Assembly (NCBI GenBank): GCA_944391085.1
Contig: CALXSE010000011.1
Location: 4,012 to 68,011 of the forward strand
Direction: 5' to 3'
From: an uncultured Kiritimatiellota bacterium
GTDB taxonomy: Bacteria; Verrucomicrobiota; Kiritimatiellia; RFP12; DVOR01
Length of the DNA stretch: 64,000 nucleotides
The position numbers were made by a program, and so were the translations under genes. The notes under the pieces were generated by a model. The model was not told where the DNA came from and did not search any database. It saw only the letters and a program-made list of their open reading frames with translations. Below are positions 25,656 through 37,017 of this stretch, in pieces. Each line of letters opens with the position of its first letter. Positions within the stretch are counted from its first letter, which is position 1.

Positions 25656-25661
25656 GATGGC

Positions 25662-25786
25662 ACGCCGTGGGAGAGCCACGGCGACACCCGCACAGTGCTG
25701 CGCAAGTTGTCCGTTCGAACCTGAGAAATTCGCGCTTTAGGCAACAAGACAAGGCAAGGTGCGCCAATTTTGGCGCATCCCTTTTC
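25662..25786 (+). ncRNA. candidate small RNA or attenuating leader upstream of the PEP-CTERM protein gene
   Basis: Lies downstream of the putative -10 box. Contains hairpin GCCGTGG-gagag-CCACGGC. Ends in the 9-bp hairpin GGTGCGCCA/TGGCGCATC followed by CCTTTTCG. The CDS begins 190 nt further on. Confidence 0.35.
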
Positions 25787-25975
25787 GTGTTCCTAAAGAG
25801 GCTTCTCAGGGCCTGAACGGAGACCGGCGAGGGGTGCGTCCCTTTTGGGGGCGGCCCCGGCGGCGACGGCGGGCGGCGCACGCGGGCGCGTGTCCGCGGC
25901 GCGACAGCCGAAGGGCCCACCTCCCGCCCCAGTCCCCCTCGGCCACCCTCGGGGCGGAAGGAGCAATCCAACCAC

Positions 25976-26617
25976 ATGAAACGCGCATACTTCGCCGCGG
26001 CCTTCGCCGCCGTGGCCCTTTCCGCCGCTCAGGCGGTGACCTTCGACTGGGTGGAATCAAGCGTGAGCAACAATTCCCCGGTGTCGATCGGCAATGGCTA
26101 CAGCGCCTCCACGGGCTTCACCGTCGCGGTCGTCCTCTCCGGCGGCTCCCTGCCTGCGGAGGACAGCTACCAAACGCTGCTGACGCTCAGGAACAACGCG
26201 ACCTCGAACCAGCAGGTGAGGCTGCAAGTCGGCTCGGACGGGACGTTCTACACCGAGACCAGAATCGGCTCTGATTGGGGCGGGAACACGCCTGTGACCA
26301 CAGCGCCGGACTTCTCCTGGAACGGCACCGACTCCCTCGTCGCGGCCATCGTCTTCGGCGATACGACGATCTCGTTCTACGCCAACGACACGCTGCTCGG
26401 CACGATGGCGACGCCGGACAGCTGGAAGACCGGCGATTGGACGGATGTCTTCGTCGGCGCCCAGCCGTACGGCGCCACGTGGAGCGGCGACGCCCAGCTG
26501 GCCGTGGCGGCCGGCGTGGCGACCGGCGACGAAATCGCCGCCCTGCCCGAGCCGACGGCGCTTGCCCTGCTGGCCCTCGGCGTGGCCGGCGCGGCGCTCC
26601 GCCGCCGCGTGGCGTGA
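25976..26617 (+). CDS. PEP-CTERM sorting-domain protein with a LamG/concanavalin-like body
   Basis: Signal peptide MKRAYFAAAFAAVALSAAQA. The C-terminus LPEPTALALLALGVAGAALRRRVA fits PEP, a TM helix, then an Arg cluster. A GGAAGGAG RBS is present. Confidence 0.85.
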   Translation: MKRAYFAAAFAAVALSAAQAVTFDWVESSVSNNSPVSIGNGYSASTGFTVAVVLSGGSLPAEDSYQTLLTLRNNATSNQQVRLQVGSDGTFYTETRIGSDWGGNTPVTTAPDFSWNGTDSLVAAIVFGDTTISFYANDTLLGTMATPDSWKTGDWTDVFVGAQPYGATWSGDAQLAVAAGVATGDEIAALPEPTALALLALGVAGAALRRRVA

Positions 26618-26692: not shown

Positions 26693-27727
26693 TCAGGGAG
26701 CCGCGGGCGCGGGGTCGTCGGCGAAGAGGGTGGCGAGGTAGGCCTTGACGGCCTCGACGGCGGCCTTGGGCTTGCAGTGGAGGTCGCAGCCGGCGGCGCG
26801 GAGGTGGCCGCCGCCGCCGAAGTGCGCGGCGATGGTGGCGGCGTTGAAGGTGGCCGGCTCGTTGCGGGTGCGGACGCTGAGGCGGGTGACGCCGGGTTTA
26901 TCCTTGGTCTCGTAGAAGAAGAGGCAGACCTGGGCGGTGGGGATGGAGCGGGGGATGTCGATGGCGTCCTCGATCTCGCTCTTGGCGACGCCGGCGCGGC
27001 GGAAGTCCCTAGCGGTGAGGCAGATGAGGGCGACGCGCCCGCGGAACCAGGTGGCGAGGGAGTCGTAGGCCTTGCGCTTGAGCAGGACGGCGCCCTCGCT
27101 GGCGTACAGGAAGAGGCGGTCGTTGATGGCCGAGGAGTCGACCCCGAGGGCGAGCAGGTCGGCCGCGGCCCGGAGCGTGGAGGGGTGGGTGCAGGAATAG
27201 GCGAAGCGCCCCGTGTCGGTGACGAGGGCCACCCACAGGGCCTCGGCGGCGGGCAGGTCAAGCGCCCAGCCCTGGCGTTTGGCGAAGCGGTGGACGAGCT
27301 CGCCGGTGCTGCTGGCGTCCGGGACGACCCAGCGGGCGACGCCGTAGGGCTTGGAGGTGGCGTGGTGGTCGACGACGAGCGCGGGGAGCCTGGCGGCGGC
27401 GTCGCGCAGGGGGTCGGGCAGGCGCTCGGGCCCGCCGCAGTCGAGGATGAACACGCAGTCGTAGTCGCGCGCCTTGACGTTGGTGGGGGCGACGCAGGCG
27501 GCGTAGTCCAGCAGGAACCTAGGCGGCCCCATCCCGAGGGGCGAGAGGGCGACGGTGGGCTCCCAGCCGTTGGCCTTCAGGAGCCGGGCCATGGCCACGC
27601 ACGAGCCCACCGCGTCGCCGTCGGGGCGGACGTGCGCGGTGAGGAGGACGCGCCGGAAGCGGCGCAGGGCCTCCATGACGGCCTTGATGCTGCCCCGCTG
27701 ACGGTGCTTCGTGAGGTTGGGGGACAT
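26693..27727 (-). CDS. nrnA: DHH family phosphoesterase (NrnA-like oligoribonuclease/pAp phosphatase)
   Basis: Contains HVRPDGDAVGS and DHH (VVDHHAT). The DHHA1 block GGGGHLRAAG is also present. The ATG at 27727 overlaps the greA-like stop (TAATG). Confidence 0.8.
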   Translation of the reverse strand: MSPNLTKHRQRGSIKAVMEALRRFRRVLLTAHVRPDGDAVGSCVAMARLLKANGWEPTVALSPLGMGPPRFLLDYAACVAPTNVKARDYDCVFILDCGGPERLPDPLRDAAARLPALVVDHHATSKPYGVARWVVPDASSTGELVHRFAKRQGWALDLPAAEALWVALVTDTGRFAYSCTHPSTLRAAADLLALGVDSSAINDRLFLYASEGAVLLKRKAYDSLATWFRGRVALICLTARDFRRAGVAKSEIEDAIDIPRSIPTAQVCLFFYETKDKPGVTRLSVRTRNEPATFNAATIAAHFGGGGHLRAAGCDLHCKPKAAVEAVKAYLATLFADDPAPAAP

Positions 27728-29886
27728 TAAGCGTTGGGCTCGTACTGGGTGGGGATGGCCGCCAGCCACGCCTTGACGGCCTCGTCGAGCGGCTCGATGG
27801 CCACGAGGGTGGCCGGCTCGGCGCCGCGCTCGGCGGGGAGCTCCACCTTGGCGCCGGCCTGTTGCCCGAGGAGGGCGGCGGCCAGGCGGGAACGGCTGGA
27901 GATGATGTTGAGCGCCTCGTCGCGGTCAAGCTCGCCGAGGATGGTGTAGGTGGCGCGGCCCCGGGCCGTCTCGACGGTCACGCGGGTGCCGGGCTCGGCC
28001 GTCTCGCAGGAGACGCCGGCGAAGTCGGTGGCCTTGAGCAGCTTGAGGGTGCGGTCCATCTCGTCCTGGCGGCCGAGGAGGACGCGCTGGTGGTCCTTGG
28101 CGAACTGGTATTCCGCGTTCTCGCGCAGGTCGCCGTAGCTGCGGGCGGTGGCGATGTCCTTGGCGTTGGCGGGGATCTCGACGTTGGTGAGGTGGTCGTA
28201 GGCCAGGCGGTAGGCCGCGAGGGAACGCGCCGAGGTCAGGTGCGCGCGCTCCTGCGGCTGGCGCTCGGTGCGGCGCAGCTTGGCGAGCGTGGGGTCGAAG
28301 CGGGCCATGCGCACGAGCACGTTGCGCTTGCTGGCGGCGTCCCACTCGTTGGCCGTGGAGGCCTGGATGCGCTCGAAGACGACGCGGCGGTCGAAGTCCG
28401 AGAGTTCCTTGCAGACGCCCTCAAGCCACTTGGCGCTGTCGAAGAAGGCCTGGAGCGCGTTGCGCATCTTGAGGCTCTCGCCCGTGAGGCGCTGCTCGAC
28501 GATGTGGATGGCCTGCGTGATGAGCTCGTTGAGCGCGGGCGCGCCCCAGGCCTCGGCGTCGGTGCGGTTGCGCAGGGCCCAGACCACGAGGGTAGGCACG
28601 GGGCTGGCCTGGCGGGCCAGGAGCTTGCGCACCTCCGCGCCGGCCTCCTCGTCGCCGGCCAGCGCCCCGAGCGTCGCGCCCAGGGCGACGCTGTTGAGCT
28701 GCGGCAGATGTGCCAGGATCAGCGCCTTCTTCTCCGGCGCCACCGCGAGGATGAAGCGCACCGTGGCGGCCACGTCGCGGGCCGAGAGGCCCTTCATCGC
28801 GGCCAGGAAGTTATCCTGCTCGTCCTTCTCGGTCAGCGCCTCGGCCTGCCTGGCGCGCTCGGCGTCGGAGGAGAGGCCCAGGCGGGCCAGGAGCGCGGCC
28901 ACCTGCGCGTAACGCGGGTAGTCGGCGCGGTCGGCGCCCTTGAGGGCGAAGTTCAGGCGGTTGGCCACCGTGTCGCGGTAGCCGTCGGGCAGCTCGCCCT
29001 TCTTGTCGGCAAGCATCGCCAGGGTGCCGTCGTAGATCGCCTTGATGTCGCGCAGCTTGGCGAACTTCTTCAGCCAGGCGTCGCCGAAATCCTCCTCCGC
29101 CTCCAACAGGCGGATGGGCTCGGTCCGCTTGGCGGGGATCTCCACGGGGCGGGCCTTGTCGGCCTTCAGGCCCCGGCGCGCGGCGTCCCAGAACCCCTTC
29201 CACGCGTCCTGCGCCACCAGGCCGGCCGAGGCCAGGCGCTCCTGCAGGCGCTGGATCGTCAGCGGCCCGTAGCTCTCCAGGGCCAGGCGCACCAGCTCGG
29301 CCGGGCGCTTCTGCGCCATCTCCACGATTTCCTCGCGGTTCTTCAGCAGGCGCGTCATCAGGTGCGCGTCGTCGGCGATCTCCAGGTTCTGCCCCGCCAC
29401 CGCCAGGCTCATCGCGTGGCCCTTCTTCCCCTCAAAGTCGATGATCGCCTTCCCGTAAAAGGCGTCGATGCTCTGCACCTGCCCGAAGCCCCACGACTGG
29501 CTGCTCACGTACACCCCCGGCTTCAGCGCCAGCAGCACCGACAGCCGCCGCACGATCGCCGACGCCGTCGCCGAGGCCAACCCCACCGAGTCCACCATCA
29601 GCTTCTCGTCGGCCGTCGCCGCGCTCCGGCGCACCACCTCGCGCATCTGCGCCAGATCCACCCGCTTCAGCTCCGCCCCGCGCGCCGCGAAGAACGCCAT
29701 GCACGCCAGCGCCCCGCGCAGATCCTTGTGCTCCACGGCCTTCTCCGTGGCCGCCGCGAACGCCGTCGACGCGCCGGAGGCATCGTTCGCCAGCTGCTCC
29801 CCGATGGCCGCCAACGCCTCCTTGAAATCCGGCGTCTCCCCGTCCAGCGCGTTCTGGATACGCATGTTGAAAGCGCTCTTGTCCAT
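27727..29886 (-). CDS. greA: long-form GreA/GreB family transcript-cleavage factor (about 560-aa N-terminal extension)
   Basis: ATG at 29886 (MDKSAFNMRIQ). The C-terminal ~150 aa carry ARSYGDLRENAEYQFAKDHQ (the acidic tip) and the GreA C-terminal domain block PGTRVTVE...YTILG. Confidence 0.75.
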   Translation of the reverse strand: MDKSAFNMRIQNALDGETPDFKEALAAIGEQLANDASGASTAFAAATEKAVEHKDLRGALACMAFFAARGAELKRVDLAQMREVVRRSAATADEKLMVDSVGLASATASAIVRRLSVLLALKPGVYVSSQSWGFGQVQSIDAFYGKAIIDFEGKKGHAMSLAVAGQNLEIADDAHLMTRLLKNREEIVEMAQKRPAELVRLALESYGPLTIQRLQERLASAGLVAQDAWKGFWDAARRGLKADKARPVEIPAKRTEPIRLLEAEEDFGDAWLKKFAKLRDIKAIYDGTLAMLADKKGELPDGYRDTVANRLNFALKGADRADYPRYAQVAALLARLGLSSDAERARQAEALTEKDEQDNFLAAMKGLSARDVAATVRFILAVAPEKKALILAHLPQLNSVALGATLGALAGDEEAGAEVRKLLARQASPVPTLVVWALRNRTDAEAWGAPALNELITQAIHIVEQRLTGESLKMRNALQAFFDSAKWLEGVCKELSDFDRRVVFERIQASTANEWDAASKRNVLVRMARFDPTLAKLRRTERQPQERAHLTSARSLAAYRLAYDHLTNVEIPANAKDIATARSYGDLRENAEYQFAKDHQRVLLGRQDEMDRTLKLLKATDFAGVSCETAEPGTRVTVETARGRATYTILGELDRDEALNIISSRSRLAAALLGQQAGAKVELPAERGAEPATLVAIEPLDEAVKAWLAAIPTQYEPNA

Positions 29887-29971
29887 GTCTCCGAATCCTT
29901 TCCGATGAAAGCGACGCCCCCCCGCGCCGCGACGGCAGACCGCCGACGCGCCACCAAGGGCACTCCCATAC

Positions 29972-29983
29972 ACAATAGCAAAA
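29972..29983 (-). promoter_or_regulatory. extended -10 (TTTTGCTATTGT) upstream of the long greA
   Basis: Motif match about 85 nt upstream of the ATG at 29886. Confidence 0.45.
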
Positions 29984-30050
29984 TCCCCCCAAACGCCGCA
30001 ACCGCCCCACCCCGCGCCCGCCCGCCGCCCCTCCCCCGAGCGCCCTGCGG

Positions 30051-30061
30051 TTTGGTACAAT
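30051..30061 (+). promoter_or_regulatory. extended -10 (TTTGGTACAAT) 6 nt upstream of the trkA ATG
   Basis: Motif match. Implies a leaderless mRNA. Confidence 0.55.
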
Positions 30062-30067
30062 GGGCGC

Positions 30068-30736
30068 ATGAAACGCATCGGCATCATCGGCTCGGGCCGC
30101 TTCGGCGAGGCCCTCGTGCAGGCGCTCGCGGCCCAGGGCGCGGAGGTGCTCCTCATGGACACCGACCGCCGCAAAATCCAGGAGCTCTCCGAGTACGTCA
30201 CCAAGGCCATCGAGGGCGACGCCACGAACATCCACGCCCTCGAGGAGGCCGGCTTCGGCAGCTGCGACACAGTGGTGGTGGCCATCGGCGAGAACGTCGA
30301 GGGCTCCATCATGGCCACGGTGAACTGCAAGGACCTCGGCGTCCGCACCGTCGTCGCCAAGGCCTCCACCGACGTCCACGGCCGCGTCCTCCGCCGCGTC
30401 GGCGCCGACGTCGTCATCTTCCCCAACCGCGACCGCGCCCAGCGCCTCGCGCGGAGCCTCCTCACCGTCAGCCAGGTCGACCTCTTCGAGATCGCCGACG
30501 GCCTCTGCGCCGCCGAGATCCAGGCCCCCGACGCCGTCGCCGACAAGACCCTCGCCGAGGCCGACGTCCGCCGCGCCCACGGCATCACCGTCCTGGCCAT
30601 CCGCCGCCTCGACGACGCCGACCCCGCCGCGCCCCGCCGCCTCCTCATCCCCCAGGCCGACACCCCCATCCGCAGCGACGACCACCTCCTCGTCTGCGGC
30701 GCGTCCGACAAGATTGACGCCTTCGCCCAAGCCTAA
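30068..30736 (+). CDS. trkA: TrkA/KtrA-type potassium uptake regulatory protein (RCK N plus C)
   Basis: IGIIGSGRFGEAL is the Rossmann motif. An RCK_C domain follows. The ATG lies 6 nt after a TACAAT -10 box. Confidence 0.85.
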   Translation: MKRIGIIGSGRFGEALVQALAAQGAEVLLMDTDRRKIQELSEYVTKAIEGDATNIHALEEAGFGSCDTVVVAIGENVEGSIMATVNCKDLGVRTVVAKASTDVHGRVLRRVGADVVIFPNRDRAQRLARSLLTVSQVDLFEIADGLCAAEIQAPDAVADKTLAEADVRRAHGITVLAIRRLDDADPAAPRRLLIPQADTPIRSDDHLLVCGASDKIDAFAQA

Positions 30737-30751: not shown

Positions 30752-31243
30752 ATGGAAGCAGAGGAAGTCGTCGTCCGCCGCGCCACCCTCGAGGACGTGT
30801 TCGCCATCCACCGCCTCATCCAGAGCTACCCCCACGAGCTCATCCTCAGGCCCGTCAACAACCTCGTCGAGAACATCGACCGCTTCACCGTCGCCGTGCG
30901 CGGGCGCGAGCTCATCGCCTGCGCCGGCTGGCAAATCCTCCCCGAGATCGGCTGCCCGGAAGGCGCCACCGTCGAGCTCCAATCCGTCGCCGTCGCCAAG
31001 GCCTGGCGCGGGCGCGGCATCGGCAAGCGCCTCGTCCGCTTCGTCCTCCAACGCATCGACGGCTTCAAGCCCGCCCAAGCCCTCGTCCTCACCTTCCAGC
31101 CCGAGTTCTTCGGCTCCCTCGGCTTCCGCGAGGTCCCCAAGACCCAGATCATCCACAAAATCTACCGCGGCTGCGTCTACTGCACCAAACACACCAACCC
31201 TTTCACCTGCCCCGAGATCGCCATGGCCCTCCCCCTCCGCTGA
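30752..31243 (+). CDS. GNAT family N-acetyltransferase (short ArgA-like)
   Basis: Acetyl-CoA binding block QSVAVAKAWRGRGIGKRLV. A CAGGAG RBS is present. Confidence 0.8.
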   Translation: MEAEEVVVRRATLEDVFAIHRLIQSYPHELILRPVNNLVENIDRFTVAVRGRELIACAGWQILPEIGCPEGATVELQSVAVAKAWRGRGIGKRLVRFVLQRIDGFKPAQALVLTFQPEFFGSLGFREVPKTQIIHKIYRGCVYCTKHTNPFTCPEIAMALPLR

Positions 31244-31268
31244 CCGCCCCGCCAAGGGCGGCGCGGCG

Positions 31269-33776
31269 TCACCAGCCGGCGGGGGATTCGCCGGCGTGGC
31301 GGTCGACGCCGGCGTAGGAGAGGCTCGCGTCCTCGTAGCGCTTGAAGTTCAGCACGGCCAGGTTCATCAGCTCGTCGTTGAAGAGGCGCAGGGAGACGAG
31401 CAGCCGGAAATCTTCCAGCGTCAGCCCCGTCACCCGCTCGAAGAGCGCCGTCTCCAGCTGCTCGATCACCTCGCGGAGCGACCGCTCGCGATAATCCGTC
31501 AGATACATGAAGACGGGGAGGCGCGCGGCGAACTTGATGAGCTTCTCCTGCACCTGCCTGCGCAGGCTCTTGAGCTCCTTCTCCTCCGGCGTCTCCCTGG
31601 GCCGCTCGCGCGCCTTGCCCGGCCCGTCCCGGGATTCGCGCTTGCCCTTCTTGATGGCATCCGTGCGGTTGATGATGGTCTCGATGGTGTCCCGGCCGAG
31701 GTTGCGGTCGGCGATGATCTTCCCGATGGCGTCCAGCGCCGCCGGGTTTCCCTGCACGCGCCTGAGCGTCTCGTTGTCCACGTTCACGAGCAGGGCGCTC
31801 TGCCAGCGGCGGGCCAGGAGGGTGGCCGCGTCGCCGGTGAAGGCGAGCTCCAGCACCTGCGCGGCGTTGATGGGGGTGAGCCTCCCGCCGTCGGAATAGA
31901 GGATGGGGAGGAAATGGATGAACTCCCCTACGCGCGCCTCGTCCGTCTGCGGGGCCGTCTCGTTGCAGCTCAGCTTGCCGCTGTACTCCGCCACCTGGCG
32001 CAACGCCCGGTTCGGCGCGAAGTCCAGCACGTAGCACTGCCGCTTGATGATGACCTCCCCGCCCTGCGCGTCGCGCGTCGTCCACGGGCTCTGCACGCGG
32101 AAGGCCGCCTGGAAATAGGTCTCCGGGCTCTGCAGGTTGCGCAACATCAGGATGCCGCCCCACGGCCGTACCGTCACGCCCGTGGTCAGCTTGCCGCACG
32201 TCAGCGTGATGGTCTTCGAGGCCATCGGGTCCTCCATCCGCGCCTCCACCGCCTCCAACGCCGCCGCGCCCATGCCCACATGCTTCCCCGCGCACACGAT
32301 CACCCCAAAGTCCCGCCACCACGCGTTCCGCTTCGCGCGCAGCAGCGCGGCCATCGCCTCGCACGCCGCCACGCTCGGCAGGAACCACACCGAGTGCCGG
32401 AGCGCGTCGGCCAACGCCCCGTGCGCGAAGGGCAGCGCCACGGGCTCGTGGCTCCTCAGCCCCTCCACCTCGCTCGGCAGGTAACGCCCCCGCAGGTAAT
32501 CCAGCCACTGCTGCACGTTCTCCTCCCACACGAACCGCGGCCGCCCGTCCGCCTCCTTCGCGGTCGAGAAGAAGGTGTTCAGGTCAAAGGTATCGAACTC
32601 CCCCTGCTCCGCCACCTTGCGGATGGCCTCCGGCAGGCGGTAGGTCAGCATCACCATCTGCGGCAACGCCGCATAGGGGTTCGGCCCCGGGCCCTTCCAC
32701 GCCGCCTTGGCCCGCTGCTCATCCGCGTACGTCCACCCATAGACCTGCTCCTCGATGAACTCCCCGCTCGCCAGCGACCGGAAGGGCGTCCCGGAAAGAT
32801 AAAGGTAACGCTCCGCCCGGATGGGCAGATCCGCCTCGGACAGGCGCCCCGCGCCCGTGGGCGCCGCCCCCTCCGCGGCCTCTGCGGCCTCCACCTCCTT
32901 CTCCTCGTCCTCCTTCGCGAAAAGCTCCTGCGCCCGCTCCCGCCACGCGCCGTAGTGATACTCGTCAAAGATGACCAGATCCCACCGCTCCTCGCGCACC
33001 CACCTGTGCTGCTCCTTGATGCCGCCGAGCGCGTTCAGCCCCAAAAAGTCCTGGAACGACCCAAAGCAGACGATGGGCCGCCGGCCGTCCGCGGCCAGAT
33101 ACTGCTCCTCCAGGCCCGGCGCCGACGGGTCGCCGTCCCGCCGCCGGATGAACTGCCACCCCTCGAAATCCACATGCGTCAGGCAATCCTCCTCCCACGC
33201 GCTCACCACCGCCGGCTTGAACGTGAGGATAAGGATCCGCCTGAACCCCATCGCCTTCGCCAGCTCATAGGCCGCGAAGGTCTTCCCGAAGCGCATCTTC
33301 GCGTTCCACAGGAAGCGCGGCCTCGTCCCCGGCTCCTCCCGCGCCTTCCGGCGGAAGTAATCCGCCGTCACCCGCACGGCCTCGGCCTGCTCCGGGCGCA
33401 TCGCGAAGTCCCGCGTCCGCCCCCGCTGGAACTCCCGCCGGTTGCGCGCCGCCACGATGGCCGCGCGCACCACCTCCACCCCACACCGAACCCACTCCCC
33501 CGCAAGCCGCCGCACCCCCTGCCGCCTCAGCTGGCGAAAGACCGCATGGTCGCCGAAGGTCGTCCCATCCCGCCGCATCGCCGACTCCCGCAACACGACC
33601 TCATAGATGGCGTGCGGCATCTTGATGGCCGCCACCTGCTCGCGGATGCGTATCTCCACCTCCCGCTCCGTGTAGCCCACCTTCAGCAGCCCCTCGTAAC
33701 CCTCCGCCTTCAGCCGGTAGGCATAGATCGTCGGCCGCACCGCGGCCCGCCCCTCAAGCACAAACGCTTCCGCCAT
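31269..33776 (-). CDS. T5orf172/GIY-YIG-like domain fused to an SF2 (DEAH, type III Res-like) helicase; putative restriction/defence subunit
   Basis: The N-terminal TIYAYRLK...LLKVGYTEREVEIRIREQ...GEWVRC is a T5orf172-type pattern. Helicase motifs are FGKTF (I), VIFDEYHYG (II), LSGTPF (III) and QAAFRVQSP (VI). The start lies 1 nt after the methyltransferase stop. Confidence 0.8.
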   Translation of the reverse strand: MAEAFVLEGRAAVRPTIYAYRLKAEGYEGLLKVGYTEREVEIRIREQVAAIKMPHAIYEVVLRESAMRRDGTTFGDHAVFRQLRRQGVRRLAGEWVRCGVEVVRAAIVAARNRREFQRGRTRDFAMRPEQAEAVRVTADYFRRKAREEPGTRPRFLWNAKMRFGKTFAAYELAKAMGFRRILILTFKPAVVSAWEEDCLTHVDFEGWQFIRRRDGDPSAPGLEEQYLAADGRRPIVCFGSFQDFLGLNALGGIKEQHRWVREERWDLVIFDEYHYGAWRERAQELFAKEDEEKEVEAAEAAEGAAPTGAGRLSEADLPIRAERYLYLSGTPFRSLASGEFIEEQVYGWTYADEQRAKAAWKGPGPNPYAALPQMVMLTYRLPEAIRKVAEQGEFDTFDLNTFFSTAKEADGRPRFVWEENVQQWLDYLRGRYLPSEVEGLRSHEPVALPFAHGALADALRHSVWFLPSVAACEAMAALLRAKRNAWWRDFGVIVCAGKHVGMGAAALEAVEARMEDPMASKTITLTCGKLTTGVTVRPWGGILMLRNLQSPETYFQAAFRVQSPWTTRDAQGGEVIIKRQCYVLDFAPNRALRQVAEYSGKLSCNETAPQTDEARVGEFIHFLPILYSDGGRLTPINAAQVLELAFTGDAATLLARRWQSALLVNVDNETLRRVQGNPAALDAIGKIIADRNLGRDTIETIINRTDAIKKGKRESRDGPGKARERPRETPEEKELKSLRRQVQEKLIKFAARLPVFMYLTDYRERSLREVIEQLETALFERVTGLTLEDFRLLVSLRLFNDELMNLAVLNFKRYEDASLSYAGVDRHAGESPAGW

Positions 33777-33777
33777 C

Positions 33778-35286
33778 TCACGCCTCCATCGGCTTCACCA
33801 TACCCTCAATGAACGCGACCTCTTCGTCCGTCAGCCCATACTTCGCGTACAGCTCCGCGTCCGTCCACGGCCTCGAAAAGTCCTGCAGGGGGACAAGCCG
33901 ATAAACGCGTTTTGTCGCATGTTGAGTATTTTTCAAGAGTAAGATTAGGAATCGACAGAAACAAGTAGACATATACTGTTTGACATTTTCTGCGACCCTC
34001 TGGTCTTTGTATACACCTATTACAAGATAGGTCTCAGAGCAACACGATTCGGGTTCCGCAAGAAAAGGTTTTCCTATCACTTGATAGGGGAAATCGCCAC
34101 GTTCGCCATAAGCATAGGAAATCATTACCTTCCAACGGTCTATCCACGCTTGTTTCTCGGGCACGTCCGCGCGGGCAATGTAACGGGGTTCCTTTGTAGC
34201 GTTTTTACTGGCATACAGGCGGACATCTCCTTTTTCTTTGCCGACATGTCCCAATACCTTCGTCTCCAGGCCAAAGGGCCGTCTTTCACTCACCAGCAAA
34301 GCGAAGGAATGTTCCTTTTTCGCGCGCACCTTCTCCACGATGGACAAAGCCTCGTTGAAACGGATGAAGGCCTCCGACCAAGGGAAAAGCAATGTGCGCC
34401 GGGTCTCGGAGGTCGCCCGCTTCCCGACGTTGCGGAAGGTGCAAAGCCCGCGATAGTCGCGTTGCCAATGGAAATAACAAACCCCGCCCGAGATATCCAC
34501 CCCATCGCCGAAGCAAATCTTGGAGTCGAAGTAATCCACAATCGTTTTCAGGCGTTCGTCGCGGAGCATCGTCTCACGGAACCGAACGAGGCCTTTTCCC
34601 CCCGTGAACCAACGGGCGGGAATAATCATGACAAGGTGATTCGGATGCAGTGCCTTGGCCTGTTCGACGAAGAGGTTGTAGATGGGCGTGGCGCTGGCGC
34701 TGTCGCTGCCGTCATCCAGTTGATACGGGGGGTTGCCGATGATGACGTCGAACTTCATGTCGAAGAGCCTTTCTGGGTTGACGCCATGGATAAAGGCGTA
34801 GGCGTGGGATTCGGCGCGCTTCCCGAAGACCTCCGCGGAGGCGCCGCAGAGCGTACACCTGCCGCCCTTCCAGGCGTGCGCGGCGGGCGGCAGCGGGATG
34901 TTGCCCTCGGGAGTGTCGAAGTGGGAGATGGCGTATTCGCCGTCGGCGGACTTGGTGCAGTAGACGGTGCGGCGGGAGGTGAGGGCGGTGAGCTCGGTGA
35001 TGGCCAGCCCAAAGAGCTGCCGGTGGAAGATGTGGTCCAGGCGCTCCTGCAGGTCTGGGAAGGTCGGTTCCAGCCCCTTGATGAGGCGTTTGGCGATTTC
35101 GCGGAGGAAGACGCCGCTCTTGCAGCAGGGGTCGAGGAAGGTGGCCGAGGGGTCGGAAAAGAGCCCCTGCGGCAAGAGGTCGAGCATGGCGTTGGCCACG
35201 CGCGGGGGCGTGAAGACCTCGTCGTTGGACAGGTTGGCCAGGCACTCCAGCACGTCCGGGTTGCGCACAATCTTCTCCGTTTCCAT
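33778..35286 (-). CDS. gamma-class N6-adenine DNA methyltransferase (Eco57I-type methylase domain) with a C-terminal recognition-like region
   Basis: EVFTPPRVANAML (motif X), FLDPCCKSGVFL (motif I) and DVIIGNPPYQ (motif IV). The 3' half is visibly AT-richer than the genome. Confidence 0.85.
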   Translation of the reverse strand: METEKIVRNPDVLECLANLSNDEVFTPPRVANAMLDLLPQGLFSDPSATFLDPCCKSGVFLREIAKRLIKGLEPTFPDLQERLDHIFHRQLFGLAITELTALTSRRTVYCTKSADGEYAISHFDTPEGNIPLPPAAHAWKGGRCTLCGASAEVFGKRAESHAYAFIHGVNPERLFDMKFDVIIGNPPYQLDDGSDSASATPIYNLFVEQAKALHPNHLVMIIPARWFTGGKGLVRFRETMLRDERLKTIVDYFDSKICFGDGVDISGGVCYFHWQRDYRGLCTFRNVGKRATSETRRTLLFPWSEAFIRFNEALSIVEKVRAKKEHSFALLVSERRPFGLETKVLGHVGKEKGDVRLYASKNATKEPRYIARADVPEKQAWIDRWKVMISYAYGERGDFPYQVIGKPFLAEPESCCSETYLVIGVYKDQRVAENVKQYMSTCFCRFLILLLKNTQHATKRVYRLVPLQDFSRPWTDAELYAKYGLTDEEVAFIEGMVKPMEA

Positions 35287-35301
35287 GGCACACTCCTTCC
35301 G

Positions 35302-36021
35302 TCAAAGATCCAAGGTCATCTGGACAACGCCCGGGGCGACCGCCTCCACGGCGCGGCGTACCCCGGGCGGCGGGGCGTCGGCAGACAAGGGCGCGAGCGC
35401 ATGGTAGGGCACGGGGGGAAAGGCGTTGTTGGGGAGGGCCGCGAACGGAAGACTGTCCGAATCGTCGAGCAAATCGGCGAGGGAACACTCCGCGCGGGCC
35501 ACGGCGTCGCCCTGCCACCGCCACTCGGTGAAGACGATCGGCGGGTGGGTCTCCGTCCCCTCGGGGTGGAGCGTATCGCCCAGGACGATGTTCCGCTCCA
35601 GGACAAAGCGGGCGGCGGCCAGATAGACGGGGAATTGACGTTGCCCGCGCAGGCGCTTGCCGTGCGCCGCCTCCCAGCGGGCGAGGAGCGCGGCGCGGCA
35701 GGCGGCCACGTTGTCGGGCAGGATGTCGATGCCGTAGAGCGAGGTCAACGCCTCGAAGGCCGCGCGGCGGAAGCGGGCCGTATCGTTGCGGCCGCCGACC
35801 AGCCGGCGCGCCGCGCGCAGTTTCCGCCTGAAAATCTCGACCAGGAAGTTGCCGTCGCCGCAGGCGGGCTCAAGGAAGCGGGCGCCCACGTCGGCGCATT
35901 GGGCGGCCACCAAATCGCACATGTCGCGGACGAGCCAATCGGGGGTAAAGACCTCCCCATGGTCCCGCACGCGTTTACGGGACTTGATCAGTCTCTGTTC
36001 CGTCTCCCTGGCCTTCGCCAT
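35302..36021 (-). CDS. methyltransferase-like protein: SAM-binding N-terminal module only, motif IV degenerate
   Basis: EVFTPDWLVRDM (motif X), FLEPACGDGNFL (motif I) and LYGIDI (motif II). Where NPPY is expected the sequence reads THPPIV. ATG at 36021; the track start at 36024 is a TTG. Confidence 0.7.
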   Translation of the reverse strand: MAKARETEQRLIKSRKRVRDHGEVFTPDWLVRDMCDLVAAQCADVGARFLEPACGDGNFLVEIFRRKLRAARRLVGGRNDTARFRRAAFEALTSLYGIDILPDNVAACRAALLARWEAAHGKRLRGQRQFPVYLAAARFVLERNIVLGDTLHPEGTETHPPIVFTEWRWQGDAVARAECSLADLLDDSDSLPFAALPNNAFPPVPYHALAPLSADAPPPGVRRAVEAVAPGVVQMTLDL

Positions 36022-36051
36022 CAAAAAAGCACGCCTTCCTTGTCCGTGCTT
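36022..36051 (-). terminator. terminator-like hairpin plus U-run immediately before the first gene of the R-M-like operon
   Basis: Minus strand AAGCACG-gacaaggaagg-CGTGCTT followed by TTTTG, then the ATG. It shares 4 nt with the long stem at 36048..36166. Confidence 0.4.
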
Positions 36052-36166
36052 TAGCTGAGGCCTTCGGAGCCCTTAAAAGAACACGCACAAAGAAGACGTG
36101 CCACAACGGCACGCCTTGCTCGACATGTTGCCCTTTTAATGAAAGTTCCGAAGTTTCAGCTAAAGC
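36048..36166. repeat. 119-bp imperfect inverted-repeat element (about 25 bp pairable arms plus an apical hairpin), low GC
   Basis: GCTTTAGCTGA (36048-58) pairs with TCAGCTAAAGC (36156-66). CTTCGGA (36062-68) pairs with TCCGAAG (36147-53). TTAAAAG (36073-79) pairs with CTTTTAA (36133-39). An apical hairpin CGTGCC/GGCACG lies at 36097-36113. Confidence 0.6.
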
Positions 36167-36221
36167 AACCGTATCTGCGCAAAGCGCAAACAAAGCCGCG
36201 GCTTTCCCGCGACGTGCCTTC

Positions 36222-36233
36222 AAGGTAACAAAA
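36222..36233 (-). promoter_or_regulatory. possible extended -10 (TTTTGTTACCTT) for the R-M-like operon leader
   Basis: Weaker motif match about 200 nt upstream of the ATG at 36021. Confidence 0.3.
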
Positions 36234-36264
36234 GCGAAGGGGTTCAGGCAAGCCGGGCGGGCGG

Positions 36265-37017
36265 TCAAACGCGCAGGGGGCGGGCGAGGGCAAGGACGTA
36301 GACGCGCTTGGCGCCGGCGCGGCGCAGAAGCCGGGCGCAGGCGTCGCAGGTGGCGCCGGTGGTGAGGACGTCGTCGACAAGGAGCAGCGTCTTGCCGCGG
36401 AGGCGGTCGGGATGGGCGGGGCGGAAGGCGGCCTCGGCGTTGCGCAGGCGCTCGGCGCGGCCCAGGCGCGTCTGCGAGGGGACGCCGGTGGAGACGCGGC
36501 GCAGGAGCCCGGCGCGGCAGGGGAGGTGGAGCTGGCGGGCCAGCTCGCGGGCGAGCAGCTCGGCCTGGTTGTAGCCGCGGGCGCCGCGCTTGCGCCGGAG
36601 CATGGGGACGGGGACGACGGCGTCGATGCGGGGGCGCAGGGGGGCAAGGCGGTCAAGGTAGAGGGCCACGAGCAGGCGCGCGAGGTCGCGGGTGAGCCAG
36701 ATGCCGCCGTGGTATTTGAAGTCGTGGACAAGCCGACGGACGTCGCCCTCGTACCGCGCGGCGACGAAGGCGCGCTCAAAGGCGGGGCGGTGGCGGAGGC
36801 AGTCCGAGCAGACGAAGTCGGGCCCCTCCGGCATGGCCGACTCGGCGCCGCAGATCAGGCAGGAGGGGTTGCGCCGCAGGGGCAGGCGCCCCAGGCAGTC
36901 CAGGCAGACGTAGCCATCGCCGGAGGGGCGGCCGCAGAAGAGGCAGTCGCGCGGGTAGAGCGCGTCGAGCGCCCAGCCGCCCCACGTGCGCAAGGTCAGA
37001 GCGAGACGCCGAAGCAT
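36265..37017 (-). CDS. comF: ComF family protein (phosphoribosyltransferase domain)
   Basis: Internal ATG at 37017. Contains an N-terminal 4-Cys zinc ribbon (CLFCG...CLDC...CLICG...CSDC) and the PRTase block LLLVDDVLTTGAT. Confidence 0.8.
   Translation of the reverse strand: MLRRLALTLRTWGGWALDALYPRDCLFCGRPSGDGYVCLDCLGRLPLRRNPSCLICGAESAMPEGPDFVCSDCLRHRPAFERAFVAARYEGDVRRLVHDFKYHGGIWLTRDLARLLVALYLDRLAPLRPRIDAVVPVPMLRRKRGARGYNQAELLARELARQLHLPCRAGLLRRVSTGVPSQTRLGRAERLRNAEAAFRPAHPDRLRGKTLLLVDDVLTTGATCDACARLLRRAGAKRVYVLALARPLRV

Follow-up and report, generated by a model that had tools for sequence, protein, structure and literature searches.

The gap in front of a three-gene restriction-modification (R-M) operon probably encodes a cis-acting attenuator on its minus strand, one that comprises four segments, switches between two states and also gates the ribosome-binding site. 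We place the likelihood of this reading, which derives from comparative sequence analysis, at about 75%. The data support two mutually exclusive folds, both under selection: a long rod, in which segment 2 pairs with segment 3 (2:3) and an ascending strand with a descending one, and a pair of hairpins formed by the 1:2 and 3:4 pairings.

The window (the whole stretch of DNA analysed, 64,000 nucleotides) contains a comF-like gene with DZR_2 and Pribosyltran domains, whose stop codon (36265) is separated by 243 bp from the ATG of the first gene of the island (36019-36021). The G+C content of this gap is about 0.54, against 0.70-0.78 in the surroundings, in agreement with the initial annotation, which described the gap as AT-richer. 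The long imperfect inverted repeat and apical hairpin that it reported were also found: the arms of the repeat match perfectly over 12 bp (36047-36058 and 36156-36167), and the apical hairpin lies at 36093-36117. Folding of the minus strand (36010-36270), a check proposed at that stage, yields a minimum free energy (MFE) of -111.6 kcal/mol with z = -4.2, and none of 200 shuffles folds as well. The terminator-like hairpin described in front of the ATG is present (AAAGCACG...CGTGCTTT, 36026-36033 / 36045-36052) and is followed by T6, 1 base from the ATG. However, it is much weaker than the 3:4 helix (-9.1 kcal/mol in the window copy) and non-homologous across copies of the element, and it was rejected as the terminator in favour of the conserved 3:4 helix. 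The earlier proposal of an attenuation or riboregulatory leader with mutually exclusive structures thus holds for the existence of two folds, which family covariation resolves, but not for the identity of the competing terminator.

The gap would hold a putative promoter and a 5' leader of roughly 200 nt, whose parts are as follows.

36246-36251, minus strand: -35-like box TTGCCT of the leader's own putative promoter, aligned with the conserved (C)TTGC(A/C) box of 29 copies
36222-36227, minus strand: -10-like box TACCTT after TGT (putative extended -10), weak here; family consensus TGcTATCAT
36023-36221, minus strand: structured leader RNA, the whole covariance-model match (CM R1, 175.3 bits, E 1.7e-52, model positions 1-196)
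36195-36213, minus strand: P1 hairpin GUCGCGG-GAAAG-CCGCGGC with loop pattern G-N-R-A-G, identified by covariation
36172-36192, minus strand: hairpin P2, GCGC-UUU-GCGC, formed by segment 1 alone
36163-36191, minus strand: segment 1 (anti-antiterminator strand), from 1:2 pairing energies and covariation
36132-36162, minus strand: ascending rod strand (P3a, UGAAAC, P3b CUUCGGA, ACUUUCA, P3c); P3a and P3b covary strongly
36108-36132, minus strand: segment 2 (antiterminator 5' strand and 5' arm of the apical hairpin), from 2:3 energies and rod covariation
36079-36102, minus strand: segment 3, the shared strand, partnered by segment 2 (read-through rod) or segment 4 (terminator)
36052-36078, minus strand: descending rod strand (P3c', AGGGCU, P3b' UCCGAAG, GCCUC, P3a')
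36029-36051, minus strand: segment 4 (terminator 3' strand), from 3:4 covariation and duplex energy
36034-36041, minus strand: Shine-Dalgarno (SD) sequence AAGGAAGG within segment 4
36023-36028, minus strand: U6 tract directly 3' of the 3:4 helix, 1 base (36022) before the AUG
25656-25847, plus strand: second leader copy in the window, upstream of a PEP-CTERM gene (136.6 bits with the covariance model, E 1.1e-40)
about 25976-26617, plus strand: PEP-CTERM protein gene behind the second copy (213 aa, MKRAYFAAAFAAVALSAAQA...PEPTALALLALGVAGAALRRRVA)

The -10-like box has a fixed position, 4-5 nt before the conserved GGCACG 5' end, and the true 5' end of the leader RNA probably lies near 36215-36219; a simple sigma-70 scan of the window copy found no consensus promoter. 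P1 consists of 7 pairs, 5 of them with changes on both sides, and 96% of its cells are paired. The 3:4 helix joins 36079-36102 to 36029-36051 over 21 bp with a duplex energy of -34.7 kcal/mol. This GC-rich helix abuts the U6 tract and is, therefore, a predicted intrinsic terminator.

The element is repeated in the source assembly, which represents a gut member of Kiritimatiellia (1.73 Mb, 30 contigs, 89% complete). A DNA search with the window element gave 11 matches, and iterated nhmmer retrieved 29 full-length copies of about 200 nt with roughly 70% identity, or 30 with the covariance model. The aligned copies begin with the (C)TTGC(A/C) box, a spacer of about 17-18 nt, TGcTATCAT and then the 5' sequence GGCACGCC. 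The hairpin with the G-N-R-A-G loop and the GCGC-UUU-GCGC hairpin come next, and are followed by the long rod with a conserved core (GAAAC-CUAGG-AAnUUUC / GGGCUU-UCCUAGG-GCCUC) and an apical GC hairpin. At the 3' side is a tail containing AAAGGAGG, then a U-run.

Covariation across these copies supports both folds. The RNAalifold consensus has compensatory changes in 24 of 32 pairs, and from one subfamily to another the 3' tail and the apical hairpin change together (GCGUGC, GUGCGC, GGGCACG). Duplex energies between segments 1-4 were compared within and across the 29 copies. The within-copy duplexes are the more stable for 1:2 (-24.2 versus -18.8 kcal/mol across copies), 2:3 (-22.8 versus -17.5 kcal/mol) and 3:4 (-29.8 versus -18.8 kcal/mol); for 3:4, a copy's own partner is the best among all 29 in most copies. 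The control pairings 1:3, 2:4 and 1:4 display no difference between within-copy and across-copy energies. The 1:2 helices are 76-82% paired, with double changes in 15 pairs. In the terminator fold, alignment columns 135-148 pair with columns 199-212 (13 pairs, 12 of them double-changed, 89% paired), and in the rod fold the same columns pair with columns 113-125 as part of a 39-pair helix, in which 28 pairs are double-changed. None of 500 shuffles reaches the observed values for either fold, and slid registers are only about 40% paired. The terminator and antiterminator helices thus share one strand and both carry compensatory changes, as in an attenuator.

The mismatches also indicate which nucleic acid folds. 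G-U pairs outnumber A-C pairs in all three helices: 61:6 for 3:4, 181:81 for the rod and 91:33 for 1:2. This excess shows that the folding strand is the mRNA-sense strand (the minus strand of the window), and its strand specificity favours RNA over double-stranded DNA or the template strand.

The energies of the two folds differ by no more than about 10 kcal/mol, against totals of about -90 kcal/mol. Constrained folding favours the rod in 22 of the 29 copies, with a mean ddG of 6.4 kcal/mol, and without constraints 23 copies have the rod (ON) as their MFE structure and 6 have the terminator fold (OFF). For the window copy, the energies are -95.2 kcal/mol (ON) and -86.0 kcal/mol (OFF). The order of folding was derived from thermodynamic MFEs of RNA prefixes, which approximate the kinetics only: when segment 2 has emerged, 1:2 is the MFE structure in 26 of 29 copies, and when the descending strand has emerged, 2:3 is favoured in all 29. 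The model suggests that 1:2 is the first-formed state and the rod the equilibrium state, and energies, pairing and prefix MFEs concur in assigning the role of anti-antiterminator to 1:2. Because the rod is thermodynamically favoured in most copies, the OFF fold must rest on kinetics.

A mechanism can be proposed on this basis. Pairing 1:2 would form first as the RNA emerges and the rod would be reached at equilibrium, so that the choice would be made during transcription. If exchange is slow, segment 3 would stay free and pair with segment 4 as the U-tract is made; the resulting OFF fold, 1:2 plus the long GC-rich 3:4 hairpin ending at U6, would terminate transcription. Since the SD sequence lies inside segment 4, this fold should block translation too. 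In the ON state, 2:3 would pair and the ascending strand would zip onto the descending strand to complete a 120-nt rod, which corresponds to the long inverted repeat of the initial annotation, leaving segment 4 and the ribosome-binding site single-stranded and the terminator absent.

All 29 copies have the start of a same-strand gene 1-244 nt downstream, and in 13 of them the start codon is within a few bases of the end of the element. The downstream genes are classified below.

PEP-CTERM secreted proteins: 14 of the 29 downstream genes
Glycan-related genes: 2 GtrA, 2 acyltransferase-3, 1 GT4 and 1 GT8, and further 1 FrhB-like Fe-S protein and 3 large polytopic membrane proteins
DNA methylase/restriction-type genes: 3, namely the first gene of the window island, an EcoRI-family methylase and a helicase-methylase of more than 1,300 aa
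Unclassified genes: 2, a 419-aa protein with no Pfam domain and an IF-1-like gene

Since the genome has some 30 copies and PEP-CTERM surface proteins follow half of them, the leader is not a control element specific to the R-M operon as had been supposed. In the PEP-CTERM copies, the conserved RNA extends 55-140 nt beyond the U-run and has an extra hairpin covering the SD sequence. A few members of the family have no clear U-run and carry a second, SD-sequestering hairpin instead, and for some copies the regulated step may thus be translation. In the second copy of the window, a further 130 nt of conserved RNA lie between the U-run and the ATG, and the hairpin at the end of this RNA (UCCCGCCCC...GGGGCGGAAGGAG) covers the SD sequence. 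The copy G000:C9:62923-63122 is located 244 nt upstream of the IF-1-like gene (MASDDAIEVNGVVMKVLPATMYRV...), a putative target. The ORFs behind the leaders C9_17008, C7_61809 and C13_59827 are very short (63, 30 and 25 aa) and begin like full-length paralogues; they may reflect frameshifts, pseudogenes or, for C13, the end of the contig.

The island behind the window leader contains three genes.

35302-36021, minus strand: g1, a 239-aa methyltransferase-like protein with a weak MmeI_Mtase match, the first gene behind the leader
33778-35286, minus strand: g2, an Eco57I-type N6-adenine methyltransferase (Pfam Eco57I, 4.6e-29)
31269-33776, minus strand: g3, 835 aa, lacking a Pfam domain; identity with the third genes of Bacteroidales modules 46-57%

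The order leader-g1-g2-g3 recurs in at least 12 Bacteroidales loci with 40-57% amino-acid identity. In about 20 Bacteroidales loci this leader is followed by a homologue of g1 (MDTQIKSK..HGEVFTNPREV..), g2 and the second gene of the Bacteroidales modules have 48-55% identity, and g3 is presumed to be the nuclease partner. The composition of g2 (33778-35286) is 46-57% G+C within a 70% genome, and the protein is about 50% identical to Bacteroidales proteins. These features are consistent with a cross-phylum transfer of the g1-g2-g3 module. The leader ahead of the module in the window is of the Kiritimatiellia subtype, as defined by its P1/P2 domain.

Comparison with related genomes delimits the island. 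In two genomes of the genus (G024 and G018), comF directly adjoins the homologue of the gene at 30752-31243 of the window, which constitutes an empty site, and other genomes of the genus carry different cargo after comF, including a 98%-identical relative (G005) whose identity with the window stops immediately 3' of the comF stop codon. The identity break and the empty site together imply that promoter and leader belong to the island (about 31244-36264), and a leader after comF was found in 0 of the 27 genomes compared. The post-comF site (31244-36264; L167, L177, L180, L195) is a variable hot spot in the genus: it is empty in 2 genomes and is occupied by a GT8-like gene in 1 and by an unrelated gene in the 98%-identical relative. 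Elsewhere in the window, the C-terminal 170 aa of a 994-aa frame (27727-30711, minus strand) match GreA/GreB, and the length of this frame is probably artefactual, high-GC DNA being prone to open frames.

A search with the covariance model, built from the 29 copies of the source genome and thus from Kiritimatiellia only, reveals that the leader is widespread. Of 24 other genomes of the genus, 22 contain between 1 and 34 copies each; genomes from other families of the order have 1-7, and across the phylum, Verrucomicrobiota, the model matches 77 of 401 sampled genomes (39 of 184 genera). An exact-pattern scan for the core over one genome per species identified at least 118 loci. Among the matches listed, most are from Bacteroidota and the rest include Kiritimatiellia and 'Candidatus Spyradenecus'; the Bacteroidota carriers listed comprise Prevotella/Segatella, Xylanibacter brevis ATCC 19188, Pedobacter, Runella, Alistipes, Paludibacter and Chitinophagaceae. 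X. brevis ATCC 19188, several Pedobacter strains, Runella salmonicolor and one Segatella copri strain are cultivable. The Kiritimatiellia-only model scores the Bacteroidota pattern loci at 26-60 bits, and a T4+ run lies about 30-45 nt 3' of the core in 103 of the 119 Bacteroidota and Kiritimatiellia pattern matches listed.

The switch is also recognizable in the Bacteroidota copies. In an alignment of 94 distinct Bacteroidota sequences that was fitted to the model, and whose P3b is set by the pattern used for the search, pairing reaches 93% of the stored structure, with double changes in all 6 pairs of P3a and all 10 apical pairs. Pairing of the tail with the apical 3' arm in 86 copies gives -23.3 kcal/mol for self and -18.2 kcal/mol for cross combinations, a difference attained in 0 of 5000 permutations. 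Among the matches listed, the downstream genes in Bacteroidota are overwhelmingly R-M genes of every type: the g1 homologues mentioned above, EcoRI-family, Dcm and N6_N4 methylases, type III res/mod, type ISP, type IIG enzymes of the MmeI/Eco57I kind, HsdM and Tsp45I. In three Bacteroidales loci (L072, L123 and L128), the first gene behind the leader encodes a small HTH protein (MADQEFHIGKLIQERL...SWLARKLGCDRSNIYHIF), possibly of the controller type, in which case RNA and protein control would be combined there.

Two further contigs with the leader look like binning contaminants and not like copies from Firmicutes: L125 (CAVDHG010000032.1, labelled Agathobacter rectalis; 110 bits, clearly of the Kiritimatiellia type) and L076 (JAFVUY010000041.1, labelled Bacilli bacterium; 41 bits). 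A phage origin was rejected because a set of 50,697 phage records gave no leader match and IMG/VR a single one; the plasmid collection gave no match. The Rfam comparison suggested in the initial annotation returned nothing: with Rfam 15 there was no match at the element in the window at E<=10 or in six copies at E<=1, none at gathering score in 15 loci, and none at E<=0.5 in eight Bacteroidota loci. A description of the leader family was not found in the literature searched, although it may be among the 3,161 unnamed candidate RNAs of the HMP2 catalogue (PMC8040213).

Because the same leader precedes such diverse genes, the question of what sets its state concerns all copies at once. We infer that the input that decides between the folds is shared by every locus and both phyla, and is not a product of the operon. 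Candidate inputs are the elongation or pausing rate of RNA polymerase, or a common small molecule or protein that would stabilise one fold; we favour elongation or pausing rate, or a general factor, acting during transcription. Operon-specific sensing, c-di-GMP and a NusG paralogue are disfavoured. No GGDEF domain was found in the source genome, which makes c-di-GMP unlikely, and a specialised NusG antiterminator (RfaH/UpxY/LoaP) was rejected on the grounds that the 89%-complete genome has a single PF02357 match and thus only one NusG gene. A leader peptide of the trp type was rejected as well, as no ATG column is common to more than 8 of the 29 copies and the top one lies inside the P1 stem.

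Other readings of the leader were considered. In a true riboswitch, a small molecule would bind the phylum-spanning core (GAAAC-P3b-AAnUUUC opposite GGGCUU-P3b'-GGCCUC), stabilise the rod and turn the genes on. The sequence of the core is kept across Kiritimatiellia and Bacteroidota while the 5' domain, the apical hairpin and the tail vary, the expression platforms differ (terminator or SD-sequestering hairpin) as they do in riboswitch families, and the high copy number per genome recalls some second-messenger riboswitches. Nevertheless, we regard this reading as unlikely: a second partner in the OFF-fold mini-hairpins GAAA:UUUC and GGGCUUU:AGGGCCU largely explains why the nucleotides are conserved, there is no sign of a multi-helix junction or pocket, the argument against c-di-GMP applies, and no metabolite logically ties together all R-M types, PEP-CTERM proteins and glycan genes.

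Alternatively, a trans-acting RNA-binding protein or a specialised elongation factor could select the fold by acting on P1/P2 or on the core, in the manner of PyrR, TRAP, LicT or LoaP/UpxY. The conservation of the G-N-R-A-G loop of P1, the near invariance of P2 in the genus, and the resemblance of the regulated surface glycans and acquired operons to RfaH/UpxY regulons would agree with such a partner. The proposal is doubtful, however, given that the source genome has one NusG-family gene only, that tblastn found no credible match to CsrA or Hfq in it, and that the 5' domain differs between the phyla whereas the switch is kept, so that a single conserved partner is not obvious.

It is more doubtful still that the terminated leaders of roughly 195 nt serve as multicopy trans-acting small RNAs, with any effect in cis being secondary. 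The predicted promoter and terminator-like 3' end would suit an independent RNA, and about 30 near-identical core segments could inter-pair. Yet the position and orientation of the element are strictly upstream of a gene, the start codon nearly adjoins it in the 13 copies noted above, the SD sequence is part of segment 4, and the PEP-CTERM copies keep their conserved RNA beyond the U-run.

A selfish DNA repeat (MITE/REP-like) or a DNA-level switch (an invertible element or ssDNA promoter) in place of an RNA is extremely improbable, for although the copies of a long imperfect palindrome are many and dispersed and the gene classes match the usual inverton targets in gut bacteria, all 29 are sense-oriented upstream of genes and diverge to about 70% identity with compensatory changes, target-site duplications are absent, the leader entered with the island, plasmid and phage matches are lacking apart from the one in IMG/VR, the surplus of G-U pairs marks the mRNA-sense strand as the folding one, where an ssDNA promoter would require folding of the template strand, and no inverted-core copy occurs among the roughly 30 copies of the source genome, several hundred in the genus or the 119 pattern matches listed. 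The initial annotation had offered a MITE-like insertion or integration scar as an alternative, with dispersed copies as its sign; the copies are indeed dispersed, but their uniform orientation, divergence and lack of target-site duplications led us to reject it, and the window copy itself is flanked by the comF stop and its own gene's ATG, in fixed orientation and with an empty site in relatives. The G-U excess on the sense strand and the absence of plasmid matches likewise led us to reject an ssDNA (Frpo-like) promoter of a transferred strand.

Control of R-M systems is known to operate via controller proteins, antisense RNAs and DNA inversion. Neither Rfam nor the literature searched yielded an RNA terminator/antiterminator leader for R-M systems, and no report of an RNA attenuator for R-M systems or PEP-CTERM proteins was found in that literature. 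The leader constitutes a new RNA family whose type of logic is known and whose degree of multiplication is unusual, as seen from the at least 118 exact-core matches in species-representative genomes and the up to 34 copies per genome. Its expansion in Kiritimatiellia indicates a general-purpose control module and not an R-M accessory, which constrains what the leader can sense, and suggests that defence and surface-variation genes are co-regulated by an RNA mechanism in gut bacteria. It also provides a clean natural example of one sequence selected for two complete alternative folds.

A broader and rather speculative idea, which we hold to be unlikely, is that the portable leader defines an RNA-level regulon of phage-facing genes through a common signal or cross-talk in trans. 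If so, R-M systems of every type in Bacteroidota and Kiritimatiellia and some 30 surface-protein and glycan-decoration loci in Kiritimatiellia would be under a single signal, which could for instance be altered transcription elongation or a metabolite made during infection or stress. In the other version, the leaders would cross-talk in trans via the complementary segments that they share, and defence and surface would be switched together with no protein regulator.

The proposed two-state attenuator resembles three-helix attenuators (E. coli trp, B. subtilis pyr/PyrR and T-box leaders) in its 1:2, 2:3 and 3:4 segments, in the U-tract after 3:4 and in the presumed co-transcriptional decision. 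It differs from them in having no leader peptide, no T-box or Rfam match and no known binding protein, and two further complementary strands lengthen its antiterminator into a 120-nt rod. With kinetic ON riboswitches such as the pbuE adenine riboswitch, it has in common a 5' leader acting in cis, two folds close in energy, an outcome probably set co-transcriptionally, and the presence of terminator and SD-sequestering variants in one family. In contrast to these, it has no recognisable aptamer or ligand, and its conserved nucleotides are mostly explained by double pairing.

Similarities extend to systems that govern the same kinds of genes. Like the C proteins and antisense RNAs of R-M systems, the leader heads many R-M types and plausibly limits or times their expression; unlike C proteins, it would act via RNA structure and not as a DNA-binding protein, and it also precedes non-R-M genes. 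Phase-variation switches (the invertible promoters of Bacteroides and the C. difficile cwpV switch) have the same targets, namely R-M methylases, glycan-modifying enzymes and surface proteins, and the cwpV switch likewise determines whether a leader terminator forms; for the leader, by contrast, there is no evidence of DNA inversion, and the alternative folds occur in a single DNA orientation. MITEs and REP elements are similarly short, palindromic, multicopy and intergenic. The leader is distinguished from them by the absence of target-site duplications, by a fixed orientation and distance to genes, by strand-specific G-U pairs, and by a deep divergence with compensatory changes.
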